This document shows, piece after piece, positions 17,079 to 32,173 of a DNA stretch of 64,000 nt; within the stretch, counting starts at the first letter, position 1; every line of letters begins with the position of its first letter. Origin of the DNA: Promethearchaeota archaeon (lineage in GTDB: Archaea; Asgardarchaeota; Lokiarchaeia; Sigyniarchaeales; SOKP01); NCBI GenBank assembly GCA_048941265.1, contig JBHLNT010000001.1:32001-96000 (forward strand). The letters are read 5' to 3'. The notes under the pieces were generated by a model. The model made no database searches and was not told where the DNA came from. It saw only the letters and a list, made by a program, of their open reading frames with translations. The translations under genes and the position numbers were made by a program.

Positions 17079-18506
17079 TTATTTAATTTGGTTTTTACGT
17101 GCTTCTAAAATTTTAGCTCTTTCATTTAGGATATTTCTTACTGTTTTTGAATCCTCTGGATACCATTTCAACGTAAAGAGCCATACCATAATGCCCGGGA
17201 TTATAAATACCAATAACATTAAAATCGTTAATTGGTAATTAGTTCCAGTCATAACTAATAATATTCCTACTATAATTGCTCCCAAGCCCCACCCTATACT
17301 CTCAACCAGTTGATTCCAAGACACTATCTTGCCCTGGGCTTCAGGTAAATTTATTTCTTGTATAAGGGGAGCTTGATTTACCATGAATAAGCTCCCAATC
17401 ACGTTTGATGTAAAAAACAGCATACCCATTACCCAAATTATTGGTAGAGAAAATAAATATGGAATGTCTTGTCCTTCAGATACAGAAAAATGAGGCAACG
17501 GAATAAAAAAGATAGCCACAAAACTTACCATTCCAAAACTTAGCGAGAAGATTATAAAATAAATTCTCCTAATTGGATGTTCTTTGCAAACTTTATCAGA
17601 GAGCCAACCAAAAGCTAATTGCCCGATTAATCCTGCGGTTAATCCAAACACAATCATAAAGACCGCAGTAAATATAGGGGAAAGATTATGAGGAGGAGTT
17701 TGAATATAAGGCAAAATTAACAGAATGGCACTTCCCATTAGAATATTCGAAGAAATACCCTCTACTAGGGCAACTATATTAGTTTTGCTGAACATGGTTT
17801 TTTTCATCATTTCACGATCAATTTGAAAATCATACTTAATATCATCATGTTTAAGAATCTGCATTAATTCTATTTGTTGAGCACCTCTCTTTGGCTCATC
17901 CATATGTATGAAAAAGATGAATCCAGCAAGTACTATTAATACGCCTAAACCCCAAAAATATTCCCTCCAAAAACCATATTGGACAAAAAAGGAAGCTACT
18001 AAAAATCCAAATGTCATAAATAATCCCATCATGAGCCCCATGACGCCAAAAAAACGTGATCTATGGGATTTTGGAACCAGATCATTTGAGAGAGAAGCAA
18101 TTGAGGGCCACGATCCCCCTGCGAATAAAGCAAAAATGAATATAAAAAATAAGAAATAAAGCCATGTCTCAAAACCTTTTCCCTCTTCCGCAAAACCCAA
18201 CATAGCAATGCTAAAACCTCTAAAAATGGAAATCATAAAGAGGATTTTCGTACGACTAAATTTATCGATTAACATTCCAAAAAAAAGACCGCATAAAGAG
18301 GAAACCCAAAATAATACAGTTAACAATATCCCAATTTCTAAGGCATGATAGGGCTCATCTGGCCACATTATAAGAGATAATTGAACAATTAAGATGGTGA
18401 AACCAGCATAGGCCAAAGTTTGAAGACCTCCCAGGAGATAGAGAGACCAAAAAGTTCCATGTATTGAGAATTCTGAATTTGATGTATCAGCAGGTTCCTC
18501 TGGCAT
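17079..18506 (-). CDS. MFS transporter (Spinster-like)
   Basis: About 12 TMs; GMLIDKFSR and GWLSDK motif A; EPKRG after TM6 as I recall in Spinster-family MFS. Confidence 0.85.
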   Translation of the reverse strand: MPEEPADTSNSEFSIHGTFWSLYLLGGLQTLAYAGFTILIVQLSLIMWPDEPYHALEIGILLTVLFWVSSLCGLFFGMLIDKFSRTKILFMISIFRGFSIAMLGFAEEGKGFETWLYFLFFIFIFALFAGGSWPSIASLSNDLVPKSHRSRFFGVMGLMMGLFMTFGFLVASFFVQYGFWREYFWGLGVLIVLAGFIFFIHMDEPKRGAQQIELMQILKHDDIKYDFQIDREMMKKTMFSKTNIVALVEGISSNILMGSAILLILPYIQTPPHNLSPIFTAVFMIVFGLTAGLIGQLAFGWLSDKVCKEHPIRRIYFIIFSLSFGMVSFVAIFFIPLPHFSVSEGQDIPYLFSLPIIWVMGMLFFTSNVIGSLFMVNQAPLIQEINLPEAQGKIVSWNQLVESIGWGLGAIIVGILLVMTGTNYQLTILMLLVFIIPGIMVWLFTLKWYPEDSKTVRNILNERAKILEARKNQIK

Positions 18507-18729: not shown

Positions 18730-20133
18730 ATGAGCGTATCTCAAAAACAAAATGTAGGTTCTGATGAATCTAGATATTCTTCTAAAATTCATTTATCATA
18801 TAGCCTTGGGAGCTTTTTCGACACTTTTTACGTGGCAAGTTTTACTGTCCGCGTTATATATTTTTACGAGAATGAACTCTTCTTATCCATTGTATTGATA
18901 GGTACTGCTTTTATTATATATGGTTTTTGGAATATGATCAACGATCCTTTGATTGGGTGGTTTGCAGATAAAGAAACGCGATTTACTAAGCGATGGGGTC
19001 GGAGATTTCCATGGTTTTTTATAGGCGCTATAAGTATAAATTTTGTTTATATTTTTATATATACAGTTCCTGTTAACGATCAATTAGGAATGTTTATATG
19101 GCTGCTGGTAATTATTTGTTTATTTGAATTATGTTATTCTCTTTGGCAAGTTAGTTGGCTTTCTCTCTATCCCGATAAGTTTCGCTCCCAGAAGGAACGA
19201 ACGAAATTAGGAGCATTAACTACCATATTTGGTCAATTAGGGACAGTTATGGGAATTGTGATTCCTCCTTTATTTATCATATATGGAAATGTCGAATCTT
19301 ATATTTTTGCCGCGATAGCAGTAGCTATTATTTCGCTTATAATCGCCTTGCTCATTATTCCAGGTATGCACGAGGATGAAGATATAATCGCACGCGAACT
19401 TAAAAACATCCAAGAACAAAAGAAAGAAGAGGAATCGTACTTACAAATAGTAAAATTCTCTATGAAGGAAAAAAATTTTGTCGCTTATGTTCTATGGTAT
19501 CTTTGCTATTATATGCTTCCCTTATTGATGCTCTCATCACTTTCTTATTGGGTCATTTATATTGTAAAATATAGAAATCCAATGATAGAAACATTATTAG
19601 CGGGGATTTTTATGATAGGTGCCTTAGTATCAGTTCCGTTATGGTTAAAAATGGGGAGAAAGTTTGGTATACGAAAGATTTACATTTATGGGAGTTTGAT
19701 GGCTTCAATTTGCTTTATTCCGCTGATATTCGTTTCTGATCTAACTCTCACTCTTACATTTCTTTTTCTAATTGGATTTTTCTATGGATCTTGTTGGACA
19801 TTATTATATCCCGGATTCTCTGAGGTAATGGATGAGCTTGTGGTCAAAAGTGGAGAACGTAGAGAAGGTGCTTACACAGGAATTAGAACCTTTATTGGAC
19901 GGTTGTCCTTTGTGCTACAAGCGGTCATTTTCTCAATAGTTCATACCACCACAAAATTCGAAGCTGGAGCAGAAACCCAAAAACCATTAGCATTATGGGG
20001 AATACGAATTATCATGGTAATAGCTCCAATGGTATTTCTTTTCATTGGTTTCCTTCTTATGGCAATCTTCTATGATCTTACCCCCGAAAAAGTGAACGCT
20101 AATAAAGCTCTATTGAAAGAAAAGAATTTTTAA
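18730..20133 (+). CDS. GPH / MFS_2 cation symporter (MelB/MFSD2-like)
   Basis: WNMINDPLIGWFAD..RWGRRFPW, GERREGAY. Confidence 0.92.
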   Translation: MSVSQKQNVGSDESRYSSKIHLSYSLGSFFDTFYVASFTVRVIYFYENELFLSIVLIGTAFIIYGFWNMINDPLIGWFADKETRFTKRWGRRFPWFFIGAISINFVYIFIYTVPVNDQLGMFIWLLVIICLFELCYSLWQVSWLSLYPDKFRSQKERTKLGALTTIFGQLGTVMGIVIPPLFIIYGNVESYIFAAIAVAIISLIIALLIIPGMHEDEDIIARELKNIQEQKKEEESYLQIVKFSMKEKNFVAYVLWYLCYYMLPLLMLSSLSYWVIYIVKYRNPMIETLLAGIFMIGALVSVPLWLKMGRKFGIRKIYIYGSLMASICFIPLIFVSDLTLTLTFLFLIGFFYGSCWTLLYPGFSEVMDELVVKSGERREGAYTGIRTFIGRLSFVLQAVIFSIVHTTTKFEAGAETQKPLALWGIRIIMVIAPMVFLFIGFLLMAIFYDLTPEKVNANKALLKEKNF

Positions 20134-20399: not shown

Positions 20400-21371
20400 A
20401 TGGGCCATTTAACAAGGCAAATAGATATTGCAAATGAGTTAAAGAAGCTCAATTATAACATAATATTTCTCTCAAAAAACTATCCAGAAGGAATATTATT
20501 ACTTGAAGAAAGTCAGTTTGAAATTATAAAATTATCAACAGAATACCAAACGATAAATGATTCAATTCAAGAAATAAACGAGGTATTAAATTCCTATAAT
20601 AAAATCTTTGATTTTATCATATTAGATCTTTTTGAAGATTTTGATAATCAAGAATATTTAAACAATTTAAAGCTCTTTTGTAGCAAATTGTTTGTTTTAA
20701 GCGATGAGCCAAAACAGTTCTATATTCAAGTGAATGCTGTTTTCGCTTTTAGCGAAAATCAAGAGTCATTTAACTATAATAATTTGAGAACTAAATACTA
20801 TACTGGTCTAAAATACTTTCCTTTACACTCTAAATTCCAGGAAGTACCAAAGAAAAAAGTCAATAAAAAAGTTAGTAAAGTTCTTATTACTTTTGGTGGA
20901 AGTGATCCTAATAATTTTTCAGGCAAATTGGTAAGTTCCTTAAAGCAACTTGATCTAAATGTAATATATACGCTAATCCTAGGTGCTGGATATTCGAAAG
21001 AGAATTATCATGATATTATGAGGGAAAAATTTGATAATCTCATAATTAAAACGAATATAAAAAATATGAACGAGTATTTAATAGAAACGGATATTTGTAT
21101 TTGCTCAGCAGGAAATACAGTAATAGAAGCATTGGTATGCGGAGTCCCTTGTATTGTCCTTCCTCAAACTAAATTAGAAAGTGAACGCGCTAAAGCTTTA
21201 GAAAAAAAACAATTGATTATTAATAAGGGATTGGAATTTACTACTAAGAGATTAATTACTGTAATTAATAACCTACTTTCTGATTATTCACTAAGGAAAA
21301 AATTGAGCAAAAATGCTCAAAATTATTTAGATGGAAAGGGCATTAAAAGGATTGTAAATATAATTTCTTAA
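20400..21371 (+). CDS. PseG/SpsG-like UDP-sugar hydrolase (GT-B fold)
   Basis: (RADGSNKI)GMGHLTR, LITFGGSD, DICICSAGNT..E, DGKG; frame extends upstream to CTG at 20355. Confidence 0.85.
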   Translation: MGHLTRQIDIANELKKLNYNIIFLSKNYPEGILLLEESQFEIIKLSTEYQTINDSIQEINEVLNSYNKIFDFIILDLFEDFDNQEYLNNLKLFCSKLFVLSDEPKQFYIQVNAVFAFSENQESFNYNNLRTKYYTGLKYFPLHSKFQEVPKKKVNKKVSKVLITFGGSDPNNFSGKLVSSLKQLDLNVIYTLILGAGYSKENYHDIMREKFDNLIIKTNIKNMNEYLIETDICICSAGNTVIEALVCGVPCIVLPQTKLESERAKALEKKQLIINKGLEFTTKRLITVINNLLSDYSLRKKLSKNAQNYLDGKGIKRIVNIIS

Positions 21372-21553
21372 GAGGAAAAAAAGTTTTAAAAGAATGAAGC
21401 TTAAAGTCCAAAATCCTAATGTATTTTATTAAAAATTTTTACATCTTAAGGAGATAATATCTTTAAAATTATTAGACTTCTTGTAATGTTTAAATGTTTA
21501 TTTAATTTAATTAATCAAATATTTGTTTATATAAAACTTAAGATACTAGAATT

Positions 21554-22315
21554 ATGAAAAACGACCAGTTAATAGAAAAACTCCGAAAACGGGAACTTAA
21601 AGCAGTAGTATTTGATTTCGATGGTACAATCTTAGATATTAAGAAACCTCTTGAAAAATCTATTGAAGAAGTCTTTACTGAGAAAGGTATTGCTTCTGAC
21701 TTAGAATCATCTGTACTTGAAATTGGTGCTGTGCTCGAATCTATACAAGGATACCCTATTCCTAAAATTTTACTGCAATCATATGACATTTTCCAACAGA
21801 TAACAACGCTAGAAAAATTAACTTTCTTAAAAAAATTTAGAGTTGCCTTGAAAATTTTCGCTAAATATCAAACTTATTCTAAAGAGGCTGAATTATTCCC
21901 CGGTATAAAACCACTATTAGAATATCTAAATAAAGGTGCAGACCTTTATATTATCTCTCATAATCAAACAAATAGTGTTAGAGAACACCTTCAAAAAGAA
22001 GAAATTGAAAAGTATTTCAAAGGAGTATATGGAGCTGATGAATTGCCTGCATTAAAACCAAGTCCTGATGCCCTTTTACCTGTCATAGAGCAATACAAAA
22101 ATACCAGCAGTAAGAAATTTTTGATCTTAGGTGATATGCCATCTGATATTGAATCTGGTCAAGAAGCAGGAGTTCATACCATTGGAATCGCTAGTGGAAT
22201 CAGTAAGAAGGAGATACTGGAGAATTGTAATCCCGATTTATTATTCGATTCAATTATTGAATTGAATGAATTACTTGGTATAAATAATGGTCGTAGTTCG
22301 GATTCTAAAGTTTAA
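21554..22315 (+). CDS. HAD-superfamily phosphatase (first gene of lipid operon)
   Basis: FDFDGT, ISHN, KPSPD, GDMPSD motifs I-IV. Confidence 0.9.
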   Translation: MKNDQLIEKLRKRELKAVVFDFDGTILDIKKPLEKSIEEVFTEKGIASDLESSVLEIGAVLESIQGYPIPKILLQSYDIFQQITTLEKLTFLKKFRVALKIFAKYQTYSKEAELFPGIKPLLEYLNKGADLYIISHNQTNSVREHLQKEEIEKYFKGVYGADELPALKPSPDALLPVIEQYKNTSSKKFLILGDMPSDIESGQEAGVHTIGIASGISKKEILENCNPDLLFDSIIELNELLGINNGRSSDSKV

Positions 22316-22348
22316 AATTAAAAATTATAAAAAATAAAACATAAAAGG

Positions 22349-24043
22349 TTGATGAATATGGAACTTGAAAAATCAGATATAAAACCAACAAAGAAAGAAA
22401 AAATTGGTAAAGAACAAGTAGATTATGATGTAGTGGAACAAGAACTAGAGCTTAAGTATGAAAAAACGTCTCATGATGCGATGTATAAAGTTTTAAAATA
22501 TAATCCTATCGACTGGTTAAATGATAAGTACCGAAAATTTATTGATATGCATCAATTAACTGAGATTGAGGGTCAATTACAATGGTGGGCTGCATATATT
22601 TACGTTAAGGAAATCCTAAGGTTACTTTTCGATCATAAAGTAGAAAATCCCTATAAGACTTTATTTCCTGAATATGGCCCTGGAATCATCATCTCAAATC
22701 ATGAAAGCCATTTTGATCCATTTTTTATTGGAGCTACATGTCATAGACGTATTCGATGGATGAGTAAAATTGAAAACTTTAAGACACCAATTGTAAGAAC
22801 TTTGTTTACAAATTTAGGTGCTTTTAGACTTGATAGAGATAACCCTGAACCAGGTTGGGAGATGGCAAAAGAAGTGATTGATAATGGAGGATGGGTTGGA
22901 ATCTTTCCAGAAGGCACTCGCACAGAAGATGGGTCTCTTGGTGAATTTCATACTGGTGCGGTAAGGCTAGCAATAGAAAAGAAAGTACCTATTGTTCCGA
23001 CATGTGTAATCGGTTCAAGAGCAGCACTACCGAAAGGCAAATTGGTTTTAAAACCAGCTCGTGTAATTACTCGTGCAGGACTTCCGATTTCCTATGATCA
23101 ATATAACATTGATACTGTATCATATCAAGATATTAGAAGACTTTCAGATGAATTACGACAGGAAGTTATTGATTTAATGGAAGGTAATTACCACATTGAA
23201 GGTGAAGAAAAGGTTCAACAGCTTTCCATAGGGGAACCTAAGGATATGGCAGAAAAGCCAAAAGGTAATCCTGTTATGAAATTCTTTAAAAAACTCTCAG
23301 CACATTTCTTACAATTATGGGATGATTCTTGGTATGCCCTCTTAAAATCTTTAGAAGTCTATGGTTTAAAAGATTACTTTGGATCATTCATATATAATTT
23401 ATCGGGTAATATCGTTCATAGCCTCTGCAACCTTATGCTTCCATATAAAGTCATTGACTACGACAAATATATTCCCAAAAAAGCTGAAACTGGTGCCCTT
23501 ATATGCTCAAATCATAATTCAGAATGGGATGTAATAATACTAGCAACAAGTTTTCAGCAATGGGGTGGTCATTATATCTATCAACAATCAAAAGAATCAC
23601 TCTTTAGATATCCTGTTGTAAACGCTTGGGTAAGGTCTTGTAGAGCATTTCCACTTAAAAGAGGTGAGCACGATGTTGGTTCTTATAATTATGCTTTAGA
23701 ACGCTTAAAAGAGGGAAAATGGATAGTAATCTATCCAGAAGGCACAACTAATACGGGAGGCGGGAAATTATTAGAAGGACACACTGGTGCTATGCGTTTA
23801 GCTATAGAAGCAAAAGTTCCAATTTATTTAGTTGGAATCACTGGAACTGAAGATGTCTATCCAAAACGGGCCAAAATGCTTAATTTCAATAAAGGAGTTA
23901 TATTGAAAGCAGGAGAACCATTTATGGAGCATCAAAATTACTGGGACAAACCTATGCCTAGCTATAGTGAATTAAGGAATCTTACCACAAAAATGATGGC
24001 AAGAATAAAAGACTTGCTTATGTATGACGATAAACGAGCATAA
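22349..24043 (+). CDS. plsC: Tandem double-domain PlsC/LPLAT glycerolipid acyltransferase
   Basis: Two complete domains: NHESHFD + FPEGTR and NHNSEWD + YPEGTT, each followed by GAxRLAIE. Confidence 0.9.
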   Translation: MMNMELEKSDIKPTKKEKIGKEQVDYDVVEQELELKYEKTSHDAMYKVLKYNPIDWLNDKYRKFIDMHQLTEIEGQLQWWAAYIYVKEILRLLFDHKVENPYKTLFPEYGPGIIISNHESHFDPFFIGATCHRRIRWMSKIENFKTPIVRTLFTNLGAFRLDRDNPEPGWEMAKEVIDNGGWVGIFPEGTRTEDGSLGEFHTGAVRLAIEKKVPIVPTCVIGSRAALPKGKLVLKPARVITRAGLPISYDQYNIDTVSYQDIRRLSDELRQEVIDLMEGNYHIEGEEKVQQLSIGEPKDMAEKPKGNPVMKFFKKLSAHFLQLWDDSWYALLKSLEVYGLKDYFGSFIYNLSGNIVHSLCNLMLPYKVIDYDKYIPKKAETGALICSNHNSEWDVIILATSFQQWGGHYIYQQSKESLFRYPVVNAWVRSCRAFPLKRGEHDVGSYNYALERLKEGKWIVIYPEGTTNTGGGKLLEGHTGAMRLAIEAKVPIYLVGITGTEDVYPKRAKMLNFNKGVILKAGEPFMEHQNYWDKPMPSYSELRNLTTKMMARIKDLLMYDDKRA

Positions 24044-24062
24044 GAAGCGAGAGGTTTAACTG

Positions 24063-25142
24063 GTGGAAGCGACGGAAAAATCGTCAGGTACAAAAATCAA
24101 GGTTGGTATACCTAGAGCACTTCATTTTTATAGGTACTTTCCTTTTTGGAAAAAACTTCTTGAAGAATTAGATGTGGAAATTATATTAACACCTAACACT
24201 AACAAGAAGATTGTAGAGGAAGGTGTAACTCATGGGTTTGGTGAGTTATGTATACCTGTAAAAATTTATTATGGACATGTAATGAAATTAATACGGGAAC
24301 ATCCCGATTTAGATTTCTTATTTGTACCTCGATATGTTTCAGAAGTAAAAGAAGCATACTTTTGTCCTAAATTTCTGTCGTTACCAGATGTCATAAAAAT
24401 TTTGCCGAACGCTCCAAAACTTTTGACTTTTGAAGTTAATATAAAAGAATTTCCAATTGCCACAGCAGCCGCTGAACTTGCTAAACAATTAGGAAAAAGC
24501 CAATCTAAAGGATTAGATGCATATAAGAAAGCGCAAGAATATTTTGATGAGTATCATAAATTTTTAAGGGAAGGTGCCCCTGTCAATCATGCACTACGAT
24601 TAGTAGAATATAACCGTCCTTTCACTTTGCCAAAAAAGAAACGTAAGGGCGATATTAAGTTCTTGTTATTAGGACATGCATATAATATTTTTGACACATT
24701 TATTAATCTAGATTTTCAAAAAAAATTACAAGATCAAAATGTTGAGGTTTTAACTATTGAAAATCTGCCAGAATCAATATTCAAGGTACCAGTTATCGTG
24801 AATAGGCGTTTGAGAAACTATTGGAGACATGAGGAGGAAATCATGCAATCAATTAGGTACTTTATGACGAAAGGACGAAAAGAAATCGATGGAGTGGTTT
24901 TTCTTATTAGTTTTGCTTGTGGACCCGACAGTCTCATTTCCGAGTTAATAATGAGAGATATGAAAGTCGTAGGGCTTCCATTTTTAGAGATAATAATGGA
25001 TGAACATTCTGGTGAGGCGGGTTTGCTTACAAGAGTTGAAAGTTTCGTAGAGATGGTAAGAAGGAAGAAGCAAAAACTCTCAGAATTAGAAAACAAGCAA
25101 AAACTTGGAGTTTTAGAAGAGATTGATACTTCATTTGCCTAG
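24063..25142 (+). CDS. DUF2229 / 2-hydroxyacyl-CoA dehydratase-like Fe-S subunit A (PlsA/Ger-type reduction domain)
   Basis: VGIPRAL..FPFW, ELCIPVKIYYGH, FCPKF, LLGHAYN, SFACGPDS, DEHSGEAGLLTRVESF. Confidence 0.85.
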   Translation: MEATEKSSGTKIKVGIPRALHFYRYFPFWKKLLEELDVEIILTPNTNKKIVEEGVTHGFGELCIPVKIYYGHVMKLIREHPDLDFLFVPRYVSEVKEAYFCPKFLSLPDVIKILPNAPKLLTFEVNIKEFPIATAAAELAKQLGKSQSKGLDAYKKAQEYFDEYHKFLREGAPVNHALRLVEYNRPFTLPKKKRKGDIKFLLLGHAYNIFDTFINLDFQKKLQDQNVEVLTIENLPESIFKVPVIVNRRLRNYWRHEEEIMQSIRYFMTKGRKEIDGVVFLISFACGPDSLISELIMRDMKVVGLPFLEIIMDEHSGEAGLLTRVESFVEMVRRKKQKLSELENKQKLGVLEEIDTSFA

Positions 25143-25147
25143 GAGGT
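25141..25147 (+). promoter_or_regulatory. Shine-Dalgarno-like AGGAGGT overlapping the upstream stop codon
   Basis: 8 nt before ATG 25156; similar motifs precede 24063, 27602 and 28325, consistent with a polycistronic mRNA. Confidence 0.7.
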
Positions 25148-25155
25148 ATTAAAAA

Positions 25156-26340
25156 ATGTTAATTTCCTTTCCAAATATGGGCCCAAACTGGGTAGCATTC
25201 AAATCTTTATTCGAGTCTTTGGATTTAGATGTCATCGTACCTGACCCCACAAACCGAGAAGCGATTAAAGTAGGTGTTAAATATAGCCCAGAATTCGTAT
25301 GTTTCCCATTTAAGGCCACCCTCGGAGATTTTAAAAATGCATTGGATAAAGGTGCTGATACTCTCGTGATGGCAATTGATTGCGGACCATGTCGCTTTGG
25401 CTTCTATGCTTCTGTTCAAGAGAGACTTTTGAGGGATATGGGTTATGATGATTTTACATTAATTCCCTTAGATCAAGCAGACTTACTCAATTTTAAATGG
25501 GTAAAAGCTCTTGAAGAAATTTCAGGAATGCAAGGTTTAGTTAAATATCCTAAATTTGTAAAGGCTGTCATCATATTTTTAAAAAAAGCTAAATTGTTAG
25601 ATGATATTCAGACTGCAGAAGGTCTTTTCAGGGCTTATGAACGGAATCAAGGAGATACTACTCGTACTGTAAAAAATTTATTAAATTATCTTGATCAAAC
25701 CAATTCCATTTCTGAATTACGTAAATTTCGAAAGGTAATTTTAGATTTATTTAGTCGGATTGATATTGATAAAAATATTAGTCCTTTGAGAGTAGGGCTT
25801 TCAGGTGAGATTCATATAAGTTTAGAACCATATGTTAATCTAGATATTCGGAGAAAATTGGGTGAAATGGCGGTTGAGATCCATCAATCTCTAAGTCTAT
25901 ATGATTGGGTAGTCCATAAATTTCACTTAAATTATCACAGAAAATGGCTTGAACATCTTGCCCGACCGCATGTACCGATGGATATAGGCGGAGAATGTGT
26001 CTGGGTATTAGGAGAATATATAGATAAAGGCAAGGCATCCTTCGATGGCTTCGTTCATGAATATCCGTTTACGTGCATGCCGGAAGTTGTAGCCCGGACG
26101 ATTATTACTAATAAGCTTAAGAAAATATATGATTTACCGGTATTATTTTTCTCCTTCGATGAACAGAGTGGTCTTGAGGGATTTCGTACCCGTCTTGAAG
26201 CGTTTTGCGACCTCATGCATTCCCGACGTGATCAAGAAATAAAAAATAATCCCGAATTTTCGGCAATAGGAAAGAAGATTTATCCACATTTTGGAAATCA
26301 TTTTTATGATGAATGTTATCAAATAATTAAAGCTTCATAG
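25156..26340 (+). CDS. 2-hydroxyacyl-CoA dehydratase-like Fe-S subunit B (PlsR-type)
   Basis: SPEFVCFPFKATLG, GPCRFGFY, VGLSGEI, PFTCMPE, DEQSGLEGFRTRLEAF. Confidence 0.85.
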   Translation: MLISFPNMGPNWVAFKSLFESLDLDVIVPDPTNREAIKVGVKYSPEFVCFPFKATLGDFKNALDKGADTLVMAIDCGPCRFGFYASVQERLLRDMGYDDFTLIPLDQADLLNFKWVKALEEISGMQGLVKYPKFVKAVIIFLKKAKLLDDIQTAEGLFRAYERNQGDTTRTVKNLLNYLDQTNSISELRKFRKVILDLFSRIDIDKNISPLRVGLSGEIHISLEPYVNLDIRRKLGEMAVEIHQSLSLYDWVVHKFHLNYHRKWLEHLARPHVPMDIGGECVWVLGEYIDKGKASFDGFVHEYPFTCMPEVVARTIITNKLKKIYDLPVLFFSFDEQSGLEGFRTRLEAFCDLMHSRRDQEIKNNPEFSAIGKKIYPHFGNHFYDECYQIIKAS

Positions 26341-26354
26341 AGGATATATGGAAG

Positions 26355-27377
26355 ATGGTACAAGTTTCAGATAAAATTATTAAAGACGATGGTAAAAAAG
26401 ACGCATTTTTAGGTATAGATGTAGGGTCAGTATCCCTTAAATTCGTGTTAATGGATAGAGATGGTAATGTGCTTACTTCAGTTTTTCTCAGAAATCGTGG
26501 TTCTCCTATTGATTCCGTTAAAGATGGAATGTCAAAATTGAGGGAGCAAATAGAAGCAGATGATAATTTACAAGGATATGCAATTCGTGCATGTGGAACT
26601 ACTGGATCTGCGAGATATTTAACTAAAGCGGTTGTAGGAGGCGACATTGCAAAAACAGAGATCATTGCCCACGCAGTAGGGGCTCAATCAGAATATCCGG
26701 ATGTACGCACAATTTTAGAGATTGGAGGGCAAGATTCTAAAATAATTATTCTTCGTGATGGAATCATAGTGGATTTTGCTATGAATTCTGTTTGTGCCGC
26801 AGGTACCGGCTCATTCCTTGACCACCAAGCGTCGAGATTAGATCTACCCATCGAAGAATTTGGTGATTGGGCGGTAAAATCGAAAAATCCTTTATCAATC
26901 GCGGGCAGGTGTACTGTTTTTGCCGAATCAGATATGATTCATAAGCAAAACGCAGGGTATTCTCGAGAAGATATTATTGCGGGATTATGTGATTCATTAG
27001 TACGAAATTATCTAAATAATTTAGCTAAAGGAAAAGAATTAGAAGAACCCGTTGTCTTTCAAGGGGGAGTATCCTTTAATAAGGGTATTGTTCAAGCCTT
27101 TGAAAGACATTTAAACTGCAAAGTTGTAGTCCCAAAATATAATGTACTGATGGGAGCTCTTGGAATGGCAATTCTTGTTAGAGACCATTTCTTGCGTAAT
27201 GAGACTGAAACTGCTTTTAGAGGGCTTGAAGTAGCAGAAATTAAATTTGTAACCTCTGCTTTTAATTGTGGGGATTGTCCCAATAATTGTGAAATTATCC
27301 AGGTAAAAATGCCCGAATTGGGCAATGAAGTAATAGCCCGCTGGGGCAGCAGATGTGGAAAATGGGAGGTGTTTTAA
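26355..27377 (+). CDS. ATP-dependent CoA-enzyme activase (BadF/BcrA/HgdC ASKHA ATPase, archerase)
   Basis: GIDVGSVS, TTGSAR, EIGGQDSK, MNSVCAAGTGSFLD, CTVFAESD; extra C-terminal CGDCPNNC..GSRC cluster typical of DUF2229-associated activases. Confidence 0.93.
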   Translation: MVQVSDKIIKDDGKKDAFLGIDVGSVSLKFVLMDRDGNVLTSVFLRNRGSPIDSVKDGMSKLREQIEADDNLQGYAIRACGTTGSARYLTKAVVGGDIAKTEIIAHAVGAQSEYPDVRTILEIGGQDSKIIILRDGIIVDFAMNSVCAAGTGSFLDHQASRLDLPIEEFGDWAVKSKNPLSIAGRCTVFAESDMIHKQNAGYSREDIIAGLCDSLVRNYLNNLAKGKELEEPVVFQGGVSFNKGIVQAFERHLNCKVVVPKYNVLMGALGMAILVRDHFLRNETETAFRGLEVAEIKFVTSAFNCGDCPNNCEIIQVKMPELGNEVIARWGSRCGKWEVF

Positions 27378-27586
27378 AAACGTCCAAACTTTTAAAAGAT
27401 TTTTTAGAATTAGGAAAAGAGTTAGGAAAGGAAATTTTTGAGACGGCTAGCCATAGGGCTAAGCTTTCAACAATTTTTGATTTATTTACAGAAAAAGTTA
27501 TACCCTCTTTCGTTTCCGAAAAGGAACTGAAAGAATATTATGAAAAAAGAATGGAAGAAGTAAATGATTTTATTATTAAATTATAA
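27353..27586 (+). CDS. Small amphipathic helical protein in lipid operon
   Basis: Overlaps the activase stop and fills the gap to the next SD; start uncertain (ATG 27362 possible). Confidence 0.6.
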   Translation: MWKMGGVLKTSKLLKDFLELGKELGKEIFETASHRAKLSTIFDLFTEKVIPSFVSEKELKEYYEKRMEEVNDFIIKL

Positions 27587-27601
27587 GAGGAGGAAAAAAA
27601 T

Positions 27602-28291
27602 ATGGCTCAAAATGTAGCAATATCGGAAGAAGAAAAACCAAAATTAAATAAAAAACAATTACAGGAGGATGCTTTATACGGTCTAGCTAAAGCAGTAGGA
27701 GGTGCCGTATTAAAGAATTTTGCGGGGTTAAAACTCGAAGGGGAAGAAAATATCCCTTATAGAGGAAGAGCAATCTTAACAACTATAAGTAAAAATGTAA
27801 TACGTGATATGCTAATTTTATCACAATTGACAGGCAGAAAAATCCATTTCATGCTACCAGCGAAATTGATGAAACATCAAGTTGCGGGTCCAATATTTAA
27901 ATCTCTTGGGATGATTCGAGGTACAGAGAGTAAAGATGATACTGAACCGATTGATAAAGTATTCGAAATCATAAATGAAAAAGGGGATTTAGTTGCTATG
28001 ACCCCGGAAGCAAAATATGATCGAGATATACAAGTCAAATCCGTGGCAGGTATAATTAAATTCGCTGTAGCTGCTAATGCTCCAATAATTCCAATCGCAG
28101 TGACTAAAGAAAAGGCAAAATTATTTAATTTGATAACTATCGATGGTATAAAGGTAAAGGTTGGTAAGCCTATTCCTGTTTCAAAGAATTTAAGTCGAGA
28201 AAAATACCGCGATCAGAGATATGAATTAGCTGAGGACATAGTGAACATTATCGATTCTCTAAAATATACGCCAGAACAAGATGAGGACTAA
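27602..28291 (+). CDS. PlsC-like acyltransferase-fold protein lacking the catalytic His
   Basis: LEGEENIP, RKIHFM, MTPE, APIIPIAV, VKVGKPI fit the LPLAT fold; NHxxxxD replaced by TISKNVIRD. Confidence 0.78.
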   Translation: MAQNVAISEEEKPKLNKKQLQEDALYGLAKAVGGAVLKNFAGLKLEGEENIPYRGRAILTTISKNVIRDMLILSQLTGRKIHFMLPAKLMKHQVAGPIFKSLGMIRGTESKDDTEPIDKVFEIINEKGDLVAMTPEAKYDRDIQVKSVAGIIKFAVAANAPIIPIAVTKEKAKLFNLITIDGIKVKVGKPIPVSKNLSREKYRDQRYELAEDIVNIIDSLKYTPEQDED

Positions 28292-28324
28292 TAATTAGAA
28301 AATTAGATAAAAAATAAAAAAGGA

Positions 28325-28600
28325 GTGAAAAAAGATATGGAAAATCAAGATAATCCAAATATAGAAAAAGCTAAAATTGATTTACCGGAATATACCAAAA
28401 AATTAGAAGAAAAGGCAAAAGAGGCTCTAAACCCGGATAAGATGAAAGAGATGATTTCAGATTTGAAAGTAGACAATGTTGTAGGGGACCTTTTCTATGA
28501 ATCTGTAAAGCTATTCTTTGATATTGGATTCGATCTTGCTGATAAGCTAAATCTTGATTTAATTCAAGATTTTATCAAAAAAGATAATGAGAAAAAATAA
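28325..28600 (+). CDS. Small acidic amphipathic helical protein (last gene of operon)
   Basis: AGGAG upstream; ATG 28337 likely start; followed by T-rich tracts. Confidence 0.7.
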   Translation: MKKDMENQDNPNIEKAKIDLPEYTKKLEEKAKEALNPDKMKEMISDLKVDNVVGDLFYESVKLFFDIGFDLADKLNLDLIQDFIKKDNEKK

Positions 28601-28640
28601 ATAAAAAATTTTTTTGGTATTATTTTTTTATCTTAAACTG

Positions 28641-28660
28641 GACCTTTAGGTTTTTTTTTT
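28641..28660 (+). terminator. Putative oligo-T terminator of the lipid operon
   Basis: T10 run (28651-28660) after a short ACCT/AGGT stem between convergent genes. Confidence 0.35.
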
Positions 28661-28734
28661 GTTAGATTTTGGGATATTAACGAAAAAAGGAAACAAATGA
28701 GAATAATAAATTTATTAAATTTAAAAAAGAGGCT

Positions 28735-29367: not shown

Positions 29368-30135
29368 TTACCCAATATTTGATTTATCTTTAAAGTGGTA
29401 TAGTATTGCAAGGTTATTCCATGCGATTTCATATTTCGAATCAATTTTTAAGGCTTGTTTAAATGCAGATATTGCTTTTTCAGCTTCATCTATATTTTTA
29501 TATGCTATACCAAGTTTATTCCAAACAGTCTTATTGTTCGGATTAATATTTAACGAGCGTTTGAAGAATTTTATAGCATTTAGAAAGTCATTTTTATTGA
29601 AATAATAGATACCTATTTTCTTCCATATTTTTCCGTTAATAGTATTTATATTAAATTCCTGCTTTCCCGGATTTAATGCCTCATATAATTTGTTTATACG
29701 TTTAAGATCTAAGCCATAATAATTCCATTCATTAAATAATTCGGATTTAATTATCATAGCGTGTTCATGAGCCTTGCTTGCTTTATAAAAATCTCCTATT
29801 TTAGTATAAACCTCACTGAGATTTGCCCATCCACTCTTGTTATTGGGATCTATCTCAAATATCCTTTTAAAAACCTCAATCGCCTTATTGTAATCATGAT
29901 TATCAAGATAAACCTCCCCTAAAGCATTGAGAATTTTCATGTTTTTGGGATCAATTTGTAATAAATATTTGAAAATCTCAATGGATTTTTCAAACATTTT
30001 CGCGTATTTATACGCTAATCCAAGGTTAAACCAGATTGGCAAATTTTTTGTGCCCATTTTTAATGCATTACTAATAACACTAAGTTTAATTTCTGGGTTT
30101 TTCTTGTTTTTCTCAGATTTAATTTCAATGGACAT
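29368..30135 (-). CDS. Tetratricopeptide repeat protein
   Basis: Repeated W-x-NLG..Y..A..F..AL..DP units. Confidence 0.9.
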   Translation of the reverse strand: MSIEIKSEKNKKNPEIKLSVISNALKMGTKNLPIWFNLGLAYKYAKMFEKSIEIFKYLLQIDPKNMKILNALGEVYLDNHDYNKAIEVFKRIFEIDPNNKSGWANLSEVYTKIGDFYKASKAHEHAMIIKSELFNEWNYYGLDLKRINKLYEALNPGKQEFNINTINGKIWKKIGIYYFNKNDFLNAIKFFKRSLNINPNNKTVWNKLGIAYKNIDEAEKAISAFKQALKIDSKYEIAWNNLAILYHFKDKSNIG

Positions 30136-30285
30136 CTCTTACCAATTTTAAAAGATTTTCGAGTTTTTGATATTTTTTTAGATTTAACTATTTAAAGACG
30201 CATTATTTTGATTAAAAATCAGAAAGATAAATAAGAACCATTCGCAGTTTGACTTTTATATGATAAAACAAAGAACCGTTAAATC

Positions 30286-31248
30286 TTATTTATAATTTAT
30301 GATAACTACACCTATTAGCACGATTATTGCCCCGATAATATTCAATAGGAGTATGGTCTCCGTTCTTTGAAATAGAAAGGAAAATATTAGTGTAATAAAT
30401 GGCTCTATATATAAAAATGATGCGACCTTTGATGATTGAAGCTTTTTTTGGGAGTAATTCCAGGTATAATATCCAAATACAAAGCAAATTAATCCTAAAT
30501 AAATTCCGCATAGTAAAAGTATAATATTTAGGAAATTAATAAGAAAAATATAAAGCTGATTGCTTATTACAACAAAAATGAACAGCTCTAAGCAACCCAA
30601 ATAGCAAATATATTTTAATATTTTAAAATCTGATTGAATATCATGAAATTTTTCTAAGTGCTTAATAATGGTTGAATAAGTTGCCCACAATATAGGTGTA
30701 AGTAAAATGAATACATATCCAATAAATGATGGTGATGCAGGGGTAAATTTTGATATATCACCTCCCGTAATTAAGAAATATGAGCCTACTGAGGCCAATA
30801 GAAAACCAACAATTTTTAATTTGTTTAATTTTTCTTGAAAAAAAATTAGTGAAAATACCGCAATTATTACTGGTGAAACAAGGCAATCATATAATGCGGG
30901 AATTGAAGGTCCGATTAACTCAACGGCAGAATATAAAAAAAAGAGATAAAGTGAGATTCCTGAAAAACTCGCTAATACAATTAAAATCCAAAAATTTAAC
31001 GATGGCATAGAGTCTATTTCCTGAACTTGAATTTGGGGTATCTTGCATTTTTTTCTCAATTTAAGATAGATATCTAAAATTAAGAATGATAACGAGGCTA
31101 CAAATAAACGATATAATGCTACTGATAATGGCGGGATGTATTCAACTGCTATATGAACTATTATAAATGAGATACCCCAAAAGGTAATCATAAGAATTAA
31201 TAAAACATAAACGAATATAACCTTAAAATTAAAAGAATTAGGATTCAT
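30286..31248 (-). CDS. EamA/DMT family transporter
   Basis: WGISF, YRLFVAS, FFQEKL, FLYIEP; about 10 TMs. Confidence 0.9.
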   Translation of the reverse strand: MNPNSFNFKVIFVYVLLILMITFWGISFIIVHIAVEYIPPLSVALYRLFVASLSFLILDIYLKLRKKCKIPQIQVQEIDSMPSLNFWILIVLASFSGISLYLFFLYSAVELIGPSIPALYDCLVSPVIIAVFSLIFFQEKLNKLKIVGFLLASVGSYFLITGGDISKFTPASPSFIGYVFILLTPILWATYSTIIKHLEKFHDIQSDFKILKYICYLGCLELFIFVVISNQLYIFLINFLNIILLLCGIYLGLICFVFGYYTWNYSQKKLQSSKVASFLYIEPFITLIFSFLFQRTETILLLNIIGAIIVLIGVVIINYK

Positions 31249-32173
31249 AATTAATAATTACTACCGCGATTAAAACGATTATACCTCCTATTATGTTCCA
31301 AACTACAATGACTTCACTTCTTTGAAGTATAAAGGAGAAGAATAGAGTTAAGAATGGTTCAACATAGAGAAATGAAGCTACCTTAGCGGATTTTAAGTTT
31401 TTTTGCGAATATTGCCAAATATAATAACCAATAACATAGCATCCTACACCTAAATAAAGTGCACATAACAAAATCAAAATATTAAAGAAATTTGAAATAA
31501 AAATGTATAATTCTCCATTAATTATGACTAATATAAATAACTCAATGGTGCCAAGATAAGCAGTATATTTTAATAATTTAATGTTAGATTTTTTTCTCGT
31601 AATTTTTTTTGTAACTGTGGCATATACAGCCCACAATAATGGAGTTGAAAGAGCCAAAATATAGCCTATGAAGTTAGGAGATTGCGGAGTGAGATTTTCA
31701 ATATTTCCCCCCGTAACCAAGAAAAAACCGCCAATTGAGGCAATAATAAAACCAGCTATTTTAAGACTAGTTAATTTTTCATTAAAAAAAATTAAAGCTA
31801 ATAAAGTAATAATAACCGGAGCTAACAAACACACAAATAAGGCTGGTAATGAGGGGCCAATCAAACTTATTGCAGTGTATTGAGCAAAAAAGAAGAGAGA
31901 AATACCAGCAAAGCTAGCTATTACAATTAAAGTCCAATCATTTTCATTGAATTTGACATTATCCTCTTTTTGTTGTTTATTATTTACTCCTTTTTTTTTA
32001 TTAATTTTTAAGTAAATATCAATGATTAAAAACGATAATGATGCTACTATGAAGCGGTATAGTGCTATTGATAATGGAGGAATGTAATCTAAAGCAATAT
32101 CCGCGAGGATAAAAGAAAAACCCCAGATAACAATCATTAAAAGTAGTAGAATATAAATCAATAACATCGTCAA
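31238..32173 (-). CDS. EamA/DMT family transporter (tandem paralog)
   Basis: WGFSF, YRFIVAS, FFNEKL, FLYVEP; overlaps its paralog by 11 nt. Confidence 0.9.
   Translation of the reverse strand: MTMLLIYILLLLMIVIWGFSFILADIALDYIPPLSIALYRFIVASLSFLIIDIYLKINKKKGVNNKQQKEDNVKFNENDWTLIVIASFAGISLFFFAQYTAISLIGPSLPALFVCLLAPVIITLLALIFFNEKLTSLKIAGFIIASIGGFFLVTGGNIENLTPQSPNFIGYILALSTPLLWAVYATVTKKITRKKSNIKLLKYTAYLGTIELFILVIINGELYIFISNFFNILILLCALYLGVGCYVIGYYIWQYSQKNLKSAKVASFLYVEPFLTLFFSFILQRSEVIVVWNIIGGIIVLIAVVIINYES

Follow-up and report, generated by a model that had tools for sequence, protein, structure and literature searches.

In a 64,000-nucleotide stretch of DNA from a Promethearchaeota archaeon of the class Lokiarchaeia (hereafter, the window; positions 32,001 to 96,000 of contig JBHLNT010000001.1, assembly GCA_048941265.1), eight genes of the same direction, all on the + strand, span window positions 21554-28600 and encode a phosphatase, PlsC-family acyltransferases, two DUF2229-type reductase subunits with their activase, and two small proteins. 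These genes are best explained as a Lokiarchaeia-specific operon that would couple glycerolipid-type acyltransferases to a three-component, ATP-driven [4Fe-4S] radical enzyme, the latter apparently being a split, phylogenetically separate relative of the ether-lipid enzymes PlsA and Ger that is tied to acyltransferases in Lokiarchaeia. As for the function, our tentative reading, to which we give somewhat less than an even chance, is a lipid module that first acylates and then modifies, most likely by conversion of an ester to an ether.

The ability of the archaeal relatives of eukaryotes to make bacterial- or eukaryote-like lipids is a central open point of the "lipid divide". The previous argument was based on scattered PlsC and PlsY homologues and on similarity searches that had revealed fused Ger homologues: in the accessible parts of the published studies, PlsC and PlsY homologues are described for Loki- and Thorarchaeota, fused Ger homologues for Lokiarchaeota and Heimdallarchaeota, and chimeric lipids are proposed for Lokiarchaeota. 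In one large Lokiarchaeia family, the PlsC genes turn out to be not scattered, being tied to a specific three-gene radical enzyme. The "genetic potential" thereby becomes a defined unit of seven or eight genes and about 7 kb that can be expressed and assayed, and the large split DUF2229 family obtains its first functional lead. These prospects are tempered, as the reductase is not a PlsA/Ger orthologue, the operon is accessory, and the lipid product is one that we infer. Full-text literature searches found neither a PlsC-DUF2229 operon nor a split DUF2229 system described, although supplementary tables might list such proteins.

Gene content of the operon

The first gene encodes a HAD-IA phosphatase (253 aa, 21554-22315; Pfam HAD_2, 97.3 bits), and the second one, a tandem PlsC-family acyltransferase (564 aa, 22349-24043; PF01553, 184.1 bits in two stretches). 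They are followed by the genes of two reductase-type subunits, sub1 (Red1-type, DUF2229/HGD-D-like, 359 aa, 24063-25142; DUF2229 (PF09989), 156.7 bits, HGD-D (PF06050), 26.4 bits) and sub2 (Red2-type, 394 aa, 25156-26340; DUF2229, 37.3 bits, HGD-D, 18.7 bits), and by the gene of an ATP-dependent activase of the BcrAD/BadFG type (340 aa, 26355-27377; PF01869, 161.5 bits). The unit is completed by a 77-aa open reading frame (ORF; 27353-27586), which shares 25 nt with the end of the activase gene, a PlsC-like protein lacking HX4D (229 aa, 27602-28291; PF01553, 39.7 bits), and a 91-aa acidic helical ORF (28325-28600); neither of the small ORFs has a Pfam or NCBIfam match. The successive intergenic gaps are 33, 19, 13, 14, -25 (the overlap), 15 and 33 nt. 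The initial annotation of this region had described seven to eight co-oriented genes with gaps of at most 33 nt, and its ORF coordinates and domain families stand as given.

Linkage of the reductase genes to acyltransferase genes

Coordinates were compared in 25 genomes of family f1, the window genome included (G, C, L and f denote genomes, contigs, loci and families in our own numbering). The sub1 gene of the PlsC-linked type (class A) was found in 21 of these genomes, and in all 21 two PF01553 domains are encoded directly upstream on the same contig. Among the four genomes without sub1, three lack PF01553 (completeness 92, 71 and 72%), and one has a tandem PlsC at a contig edge. As the f1 genomes are related and do not represent independent samples, this linkage is a pattern rather than a statistic. 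In the window genome, all three PF01553 domains reside within the operon.

The series HAD-tandem PlsC-sub1-sub2-activase-77-aa ORF-PlsC-like is uninterrupted in L027, L028 and L031, the last of these belonging to family f3, and L027 also has the 91-aa ORF. PlsC adjoins sub1 in all fetched f1/f3 loci (n = 9), and the HAD gene is located 5' of the tandem PlsC in eight of them. Family f2 has no HAD gene there; in five of its six loci, sub1, sub2 and the activase come after one or two PlsC genes of a single domain each. Both f5/f6 loci begin with a triple-PF01553 protein of 872-876 aa, whose third domain matches the PlsC-like protein, and continue with a HAD protein enlarged by a 245-aa domain and then with sub1, sub2 and the activase. 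The sole f4 locus, on a 7-kb contig, has no PlsC. Hence the plsC linkage presumed in the initial annotation is conserved, and it has survived gene fission and fusion.

Of 301 genomes sampled across the phylum, 95 have a sub1 match at E ≤ 1e-40. Those of high identity are limited to the class of the window, except for one 2.3-kb contig from another Asgard family (L168; G068:C6, 2342 bases), which encodes a sub1 protein 80% identical to that of the window and the end of a tandem PlsC. As this sub1 groups inside family f1 in the tree, the contig is likely a case of mis-binning. In G020 (G020:C247:121-3274), four PF01553 domains in a row, in frames of 508 and 568 aa, lie upstream of sub1, that is, the double acyltransferase is duplicated in tandem.

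Reductase subunits and activase

According to the available parts of the literature, PlsA has the layout Act1-Act2-Red1-Red2 and is encoded by a single gene of 4.2-4.9 kb, as in Enterococcus faecalis, Lactococcus cremoris and Bifidobacterium longum subsp. suis, or by a plsA-plsR pair, as in Clostridium perfringens (CPE1194/1195). Ger is known from Thermotoga maritima (Tmari_0479) and Desulfatibacillum alkenivorans (SHJ90043), with a "BBD" layout reported in the same material to be conserved in all alkyl-ether producers. The window encodes no single Act-Act-DUF2229 polypeptide: the activase (340 aa), Red1 (359 aa) and Red2 (394 aa) are separate. They nevertheless provide the same set of domains as PlsA/PlsR, that is, a BcrAD/BadFG activase, a Cys-rich linker, a DUF2229 Red1 and a Red2, spread over three genes, and oxygen-sensitive, ATP-driven electron injection is presumed for the window system as well. 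It differs from PlsA/PlsR in having one activase domain instead of two, three genes instead of one or two, and acyltransferases and a phosphatase in the operon, which go unreported for the pls genes in the passages available. With Ger, the window shares the domain families PF01869, PF09989 and PF06050; the difference is that the window genome has no fused copy, as its only two DUF2229 matches are both in the window, and that the split proteins form a distinct clade, whereas related Asgard genomes hold the fused type of 1389-1521 aa. In the published survey, Ger homologues had to reach E ≤ 1e-50 and to cover at least 30% of Ger, thresholds that individual subunits of 340-394 aa would probably miss.

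The initial annotation had pointed to three conserved cysteines in each reductase subunit and to an additional cysteine cluster in the activase, and both are borne out by the alignments. The putative [4Fe-4S] ligands of sub1, C63, C101 and C286, are invariant in all 106 Red1 domains. In the same alignment, Y207 and D313 are invariant, R324 is missing in one row, D289 in two and H315 in six; all residues kept in at least 90% of the domains, including those of fused proteins, are present in sub1 of the window, and none of them is missing from more than two of the 17 class A proteins. In sub2, C49 and C79 are kept in all split (n = 43) and all fused (n = 47) proteins, and C307, in 43/43 split and 45/47 fused ones; the sub2 protein is homologous to the region C-terminal of Red1 in the fused proteins. 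The motif CxxCxxxC..C past the ATPase domain of the activase was observed in every Asgard protein of the split (n = 20) and fused (n = 10) types and in 61 of the 70 fused proteins from bacteria. The activase (TIGR00241, 194.5 bits) is 44% identical to Act2 of one Asgard fused protein and corresponds to Act2 plus the Cys linker of the fused PlsA/Ger-like proteins. The conserved cysteines of Red1, Red2 and the activase are predicted to bind iron-sulfur clusters. Presumably, sub1 and sub2 form a heterodimer, a pairing that we take to be a textbook case, and the activase acts as a homodimer.

Sub1 and sub2 belong to the superfamily of benzoyl-coenzyme A (CoA) reductases and 2-hydroxyacyl-CoA dehydratases, DUF2229 family, and are not canonical 2-hydroxyacyl-CoA dehydratases, since PF06050 and the dehydratases of the PDB match only their last ~60 residues. 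The PF06050 matches are confined to residues 273-331 of sub1 and 295-352 of sub2, and both scores are below the cut-off of 28.4 bits; in the PDB sequence search, the HadC match (E 8.2e-4) covers about 60 residues, all PDB matches having E of 8e-4 or worse. This favours the initial annotation, for which a grouping with true 2-hydroxyacyl-CoA dehydratases would have been a refutation. The AlphaFold model of sub1 (mean predicted local distance difference test score, pLDDT, 93.4) is nearest, by Foldseek, to 2-hydroxyisocaproyl-CoA dehydratase, the double-cubane cluster protein (DCCP) and the BzdNO/MbdON benzoyl-CoA reductase, with template modelling (TM) scores of about 0.5 and 11-15% identity; the top matches are 3o3n_B, 3o3o_A and 3o3m (E 1.5e-10 to 2.7e-9, TM score 0.47-0.55, 13-15% identity). 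This dehydratase-type fold indicates superfamily membership only. Compared with HadBC/HadI, HgdAB/HgdC, class I benzoyl-CoA reductase and DCCP, the window system has the same fold of sub1, a separate activase of the homodimer type and three-Cys cluster sites; it differs from the 2-hydroxyacyl-CoA dehydratases in the partial, sub-threshold PF06050 match, the low structural identity and the four-Cys tail of the activase.

Phylogeny of split and fused reductases

Relatives of the same order also encode single proteins of 1389-1521 aa, where the activase region occurs twice and is followed by sub1 and, mostly, by sub2. The identity between sub1 and the Red1 domains of fused proteins is 22-27%. Two Red1 trees were built, both by quick searches with supports from the Shimodaira-Hasegawa-like approximate likelihood ratio test (SH-aLRT) and no bootstrap values. 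The first tree (106 rows; limited to domains with 150 bits or more across 250 or more profile positions) included PlsC-linked split proteins (class A, n = 17), proteins fused to an FAD domain (class B, n = 5), other split proteins of the same order (class C, n = 5), Asgard fused proteins (n = 10) and bacterial fused proteins (n = 69). The bacterial fused set was obtained by a scan of genome contigs that returned 80 loci, nearly all of them from metagenome-assembled genomes (MAGs), and its phyla match the list of Ger homologue taxa in the accessible part of the published survey. The 27 rows of classes A, B and C group together (SH-aLRT 99, stem length 1.37), to the exclusion of every fused protein. 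A long-branched fused pair, L039/L136, attaches beside the split group, and sub1 of the window is set apart from 78 of the 79 fused rows.

The second tree (124 rows) retained every third bacterial fused protein, plus one more, and additionally included 12 split proteins of two other Asgard families, three bacterial split proteins and 40 representatives of a 50%-identity cluster library. The fused clade (35 rows) and the split clade (89 rows) are separated with SH-aLRT 100 each, and within the latter a single subclade (34 rows, SH-aLRT 99) unites the PlsC-linked proteins and the FAD-fused ones nested among them. The other split DUF2229 systems, from bacteria and other Asgard families, share the sub1-sub2-activase layout and the clade, whereas the PlsC linkage is seen only in the Lokiarchaeia subclade. 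Judging by the sequences, the reductase genes of the window are not orthologues of PlsA/Ger, since the identity is 22-27% and they belong to a separate split clade, whose other members have no PlsC linkage in the 14 loci compared. The kinship to PlsA/Ger put forward in the initial annotation thus stands at the level of domain families and conserved residues, and not as orthology.

No PlsA or Ger structure was found by sequence search of the PDB, and NCBIfam contains no PlsA/Ger model, the fused proteins matching activase and benzoyl-CoA reductase models below the equivalog cut-offs. When a fused protein of a Thermotogaceae MAG was used as the query, no homologue named as Thermotoga was among the matches. 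The split DUF2229 family has many members, with 2726 cluster representatives matching at E ≤ 0.001, and the Atlas clusters are mostly from Bacillota and Actinomycetota. At NCBI, the split systems are named "acyl-CoA dehydratase activase-related protein".

Acyltransferases, phosphatase and small proteins

The tandem PlsC scores 157 bits with TIGR00530, above the cut-off of 102.95 bits, and has HX4D in both domains (H118 and H389), likewise retained in full-length f1 homologues. A long helical pair precedes each catalytic domain on its N-terminal side. The true start of this gene may be the ATG at 22352. The best sequence match in the PDB is PlsC of T. maritima (5kym, E 3.2e-13), and the top folds matching the AlphaFold2 model (pLDDT 72) are 5kym, a lysophosphatidic acid (LPA) acyltransferase, PatA, human GPAT1 and a soluble plastid glycerol-3-phosphate (G3P) acyltransferase. 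Domain 1 carries EGTR and domain 2, EGTT, a block that we take to bind phosphate. The likeness to bacterial PlsC and the plastid enzyme includes PF01553 (cut-off 23 bits) and TIGR00530 above the cut-offs, HX4D and the fold with its N-terminal helices. The differences from bacterial PlsC are the fusion of two catalytic domains, the presence of a third paralogue without HX4D, the lack of a predicted transmembrane segment, and the fact that in the window genome no PlsY was found that would make the lyso-phosphatidic acid substrate.

That third paralogue, called PlsC-like in the initial annotation, does match PF01553 above the cut-off (39.7 bits); its TIGR00530 score, 35.2 bits, is below the cut-off, and the catalytic HX4D was absent in all five cases when sought in the protein and its stand-alone homologues. 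It is thus probably a non-catalytic or divergent protein of 229 aa.

The HAD protein has the nucleophile motif FDFDGT (DxDxT) at residues 20-25, and its PDB relatives are generic HAD phosphatases. The best NCBIfam equivalog, phosphoglycolate phosphatase, scores 95.1 bits, far below the cut-off of 225, and no other equivalog reaches its cut-off. The predicted HAD-IA phosphatase assignment holds, with the substrate left unassigned by the family models. The 77-aa ORF has homologues with 52-69% identity at the equivalent position in L026, L027, L028 and L031, and a phmmer match of 80 bits, likewise at that position, in L164. The 91-aa ORF is weakly conserved, being matched in L027 (38% identity) and L164 (18 bits), and it is less certain to be a real gene.

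Nested and sister cassettes

In some relatives, further radical systems are inserted in the operon, and the genes of the nested cassettes and of the host operon are all co-oriented. In G191 (L164 8207-13001), sub1 and sub2 are separated by a cassette that encodes an 812-aa fusion of an FAD_binding_4 domain with a sub1-like domain, a dedicated activase and a sub2-like protein. In G145, an FAD cassette is likewise located in the PlsC operon (L165 5781-10641), with a two-gene Act-Act-Red1 cassette before it. This plsA-plsR-like cassette, consisting of Act-Act-Red1 (977-985 aa) and a 469-474 aa protein without a Pfam match, is situated between sub1 and the remaining PlsC operon in both G145 (L165 10975-15335) and G019 (L023 11019-15404); in G019 the same two genes are followed by the start of an FAD cassette and then by the contig end. 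The ~2-kb gaps between sub1 and sub2 in L024 and L030 do not match the paralogue cassettes.

The FAD cassettes (L164, L165, L050-L053, L041) consist of a protein of 803-837 aa with a FAD_binding_4 domain of the vanillyl-alcohol oxidase (VAO) type and a sub1-like part, then an activase, then a 444-aa sub2-like protein. They stand alone in some genomes and are found within the PlsC operon in others, and nest in the PlsC-linked clade of the Red1 tree. The nearest PDB sequences to the FAD domain are cytokinin dehydrogenases (E 5e-19), DprE1 and alkyl-dihydroxyacetonephosphate synthase being far weaker. Three paralogous radical systems in an operon, beside the only acyltransferases, argue for one shared substrate class. 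A reading of an in-frame TGA as selenocysteine in the 800-aa paralogues was rejected for G020 (L051), where the match ends exactly at the stop codon of the gene.

In G221, from another Asgard family, a gene of the DegV family (fatty-acid-binding; L160 7681-8637) lies directly 5' of a split system and is co-oriented with it. DegV beside split systems was rejected as a general clue to lipids, this being one case among the loci fetched.

Proposed function and alternative explanations

Under the reading that we tentatively favour, an acyl-CoA-dependent acylation of a glycerol phosphate backbone or a lyso-lipid would yield an ester; the activase, using ATP, would inject a low-potential electron into sub1/sub2; these would reduce the ester carbonyl via a ketyl-type radical, as proposed for PlsA/Ger, to give an alk-1-enyl or alkyl ether; and the HAD enzyme would take off the phosphate. 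The acyltransferase fold, being nearest to LPA and G3P acyltransferases, counts for this reading, as do the PlsA/Ger set of domains and conserved residues, the PlsC linkage kept through fission and fusion, the confinement of all PF01553 domains of the genome to the operon, and the plsA-plsR-like cassettes inserted in it in G145 and G019. Since the reductase genes are not orthologues of PlsA/Ger, we infer the ester-to-ether chemistry, and with it the substrate, direction and product of the module, rather than assign it. A more far-reaching version, which we consider unlikely, would be an evolutionarily separate "acylate, then reduce" pathway leading to fatty-acid-derived ether or mixed ether/ester glycerolipids beside the isoprenoid ones, with glycerol-1-phosphate (G1P) or geranylgeranylglyceryl phosphate (GGGP) as the acceptor (chimeric lipids) and with up to three reductase systems (split, FAD-fused split and plsA-plsR-like) in one lipid super-operon in some genera.

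The window genome encodes GGGP synthase and CarS. It also has 32 AMP-binding matches (acyl-CoA-synthetase-like), one of them in the window (57764-58957, - strand), and these proteins could supply acyl-CoA. Because of the 32 AMP-binding matches and the lack of a PP-binding/acyl carrier protein (ACP) match, acyl metabolism is suggested to be CoA-based rather than ACP-based.

A number of observations weigh against an ester-to-ether lipid module. In the 91%-complete genome, PlsY (PF02660) and ACP (PF00550) were not found, and a search for GpsA (PF01210) yielded only weak Rossmann-type matches, none of them convincing; this does not bear out the self-contained lipid route proposed in the initial annotation. 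One of the three acyltransferase-like domains is devoid of the catalytic motif. None of the eight operon proteins has a predicted transmembrane segment (19-residue windows, hydropathy cut-off 1.6). The operon is accessory: G001, 92% complete, is devoid of both its acyltransferase and reductase parts, and 12 of 68 f1 genomes, some of them 99-100% complete, have no sub1-like match at E ≤ 1e-40. Split systems outside the Lokiarchaeia subclade are beside PlsC in none of 14 loci (0/11 in two other Asgard families, 0/3 bacterial), as searched with the window's own proteins as queries. Sub1 of the window falls in the split clade, outside the fused one (SH-aLRT 99-100), while the trees hold no named, verified PlsA or Ger sequence, the fused clade being equated with PlsA/Ger via architecture and taxa; and a literature search on DUF2229 turned up nothing on the function of the split forms. 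Finally, according to the accessible part of a 2026 paper, lipid analysis of the cultured Lokiarchaeon revealed archaeal phospholipids only, by a method that, as noted there, could have missed ester lipids. This report and the absence of the operon from near-complete relatives speak against any core role in the membrane.

Other observations of the same direction come from the genes near split and fused systems, and they lead to the main rival explanation, which we regard as rather unlikely. The radical enzyme could act upstream of the acyltransferases by dehydrating or reducing a (2-hydroxy)acyl-CoA, and PlsC would then transfer the modified acyl group to an acceptor, yielding an unusual ester lipid in place of an ether. 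This would fit the similarity of the sub1 fold to subunits of 2-hydroxyisocaproyl-CoA dehydratase and benzoyl-CoA reductase, and the many acyl-CoA ligase-like genes of the genome. The FAD_binding_4 (VAO-type) fusion in the nested sister cassette likewise hints at 2-hydroxyacid or acyl-CoA chemistry. The fused DUF2229 proteins of family f2 (1389-1454 aa) are flanked by a thiolase-like gene (476 aa) and a 199-aa ORF (L045 13-3306; L047 393-3709; L048; L049), and in L045 and L047 an acyl-CoA dehydrogenase gene (393 aa) is also found beside the fused paralogue; in L049, it is a gene for an Acyl_transf_3 membrane protein (485 aa). A LarA-like gene (Lar_N + LarA_C), of the nickel-pincer 2-hydroxyacid racemase family, resides inside the f5 operon (L166 11480-12862, G262), and a second one (L049 339-1601, G030) is about 3.7 kb from a fused DUF2229 gene. 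Only one of the 25 class A loci examined, however, has such a gene. A racemase that acts at a 2-hydroxy centre, next to lipid acyltransferases, might conceivably interconvert G1P and G3P. CoA-transferase or 2-hydroxyacid dehydrogenase neighbours are typical of the fermentation clusters with 2-hydroxyacyl-CoA dehydratases; in the window operon and its conserved neighbours none of them was found, and a CoA-ligase is not conserved in the operon either. The strong DUF2229 match, set against a sub-threshold PF06050 match over about 60 C-terminal residues, also speaks against acyl-CoA as the substrate, and the DUF2229 proteins with demonstrated activity in the available PlsA/Ger literature act on lipid esters.

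Two further alternatives retain the acyltransferase reaction and change its context. The acceptor could be something other than a membrane glycerophospholipid backbone: a compound that is soluble or serves for storage, a lipid anchor, or one of the archaeal isoprenoid lyso-lipids, for instance GGGP. The HAD enzyme would then act on a small phosphorylated precursor. The eight proteins without predicted transmembrane segments, the accessory nature of the operon, the resemblance of the HAD protein to small-molecule phosphatases and the EGTT of PlsC domain 2 versus EGTR of domain 1 are all consistent with this; with GGGP synthase and CarS present, isoprenoid lyso-lipids should be available in the cell, and the published proposal of chimeric lipids in Lokiarchaeota, as far as accessible, points the same way. 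Nevertheless, the nearest relatives of the acyltransferase, both by sequence and by fold, are LPA and G3P acyltransferases, and no operon gene points to another acceptor, so that we deem such an acceptor clearly improbable. Still less probable, to our judgement, is scavenging, when the operon would remodel or degrade ester lipids of bacterial partners, the radical enzyme and the phosphatase processing foreign phospholipids and the acyltransferases re-acylating the lyso-products. The lack of a detected G3P-forming or PlsY/PlsX-type starter enzyme in the genome would be explained in this way, major facilitator superfamily (MFS) transporters are encoded upstream of the operon in the window and in three related loci, and the accessory distribution suits a niche function. 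The operon lacks a lipase or phospholipase, however; two apparently active acyltransferase domains in tandem would suit the building of diacyl species, and PlsA and Ger, as known, are biosynthetic.

Transcription signals, source contig and neighbouring genes

GGAGG-like motifs were observed 5' of the sub1, sub2, activase and PlsC-like genes; the tandem PlsC and the 91-aa ORF have weak ones, and none was seen upstream of the HAD gene and the 77-aa ORF. Of the strong Shine-Dalgarno motifs ascribed to the whole series in the initial annotation, those of four genes therefore remain. A TATA-box-like sequence, TTTATATA (21526-21533, + strand), located 20-27 nt 5' of the HAD start codon, is the probable operon promoter, and the leader would be short or absent. 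Downstream of the last ORF, there is a T-rich tract (28601-28661, + strand) with runs of 7, 7 and 10 T. Oligo-T tracts play a role in archaeal transcription termination, and by analogy this one likely marks the end of the transcription unit. Given the GGAGG-like motifs, the TATA-like box 5' of HAD and the T-runs 3' of the last ORF, the eight-gene unit looks like a single operon.

The window genome comprises 5.0 Mb in 361 contigs. The contig is not chimeric, since many related genomes share its gene order, and an Asgard origin, as taken in the initial annotation, fits: the closest named homologues of sub1 (78-92% identity) are MAG proteins of Promethearchaeota, Lokiarchaeota, Thorarchaeota or Hermodarchaeota, and the genome has the GGGP synthase and CarS genes. 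In the NCBI taxonomy, the phylum Promethearchaeota is placed under the archaeal kingdom Promethearchaeati. Near-identical DNA is present in sequencing runs of two studies, and one from the second study contains a contig that runs across the PlsC/sub1 junction (piece 24000-24798); among the assembled pieces listed, individual junctions are bridged, and no single piece covers the whole operon stretch. In the bin 27146-27679, comprising the activase C-terminus and the 77-aa ORF, the summed contig depth is 5 to 10 times that of the neighbouring bins in three runs (110.8, 19.6 and 59.2). This bin may be common to many related strains, or repeated.

Among the neighbouring genes, none is conserved with the operon beyond the MFS transporter (four loci, the window included). 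In the window, this gene, MFS_1 (17079-18506, - strand), lies upstream of the operon and is followed by a GPH/MelB-type sugar symporter (18730-20133) and a GT28/PseG-like glycosyltransferase (20400-21371; TIGR03590, 118.9 bits, below the cut-off). The latter was rejected as a head-group enzyme of the operon, having a counterpart in 0/20 related loci. In three genomes, a radical-SAM gene (373 aa) occurs about 5 kb from the f2 operon (L033 18137-19258; L035 769-1881; L036 13-570); homologues of a membrane-spanning-lipid synthase are on record for Asgard archaea. Downstream of the operon in the window, the - strand encodes a TPR-repeat protein (255 aa) and two adjoining EamA-family transporters (320 and 311 aa) at 29368-32173.

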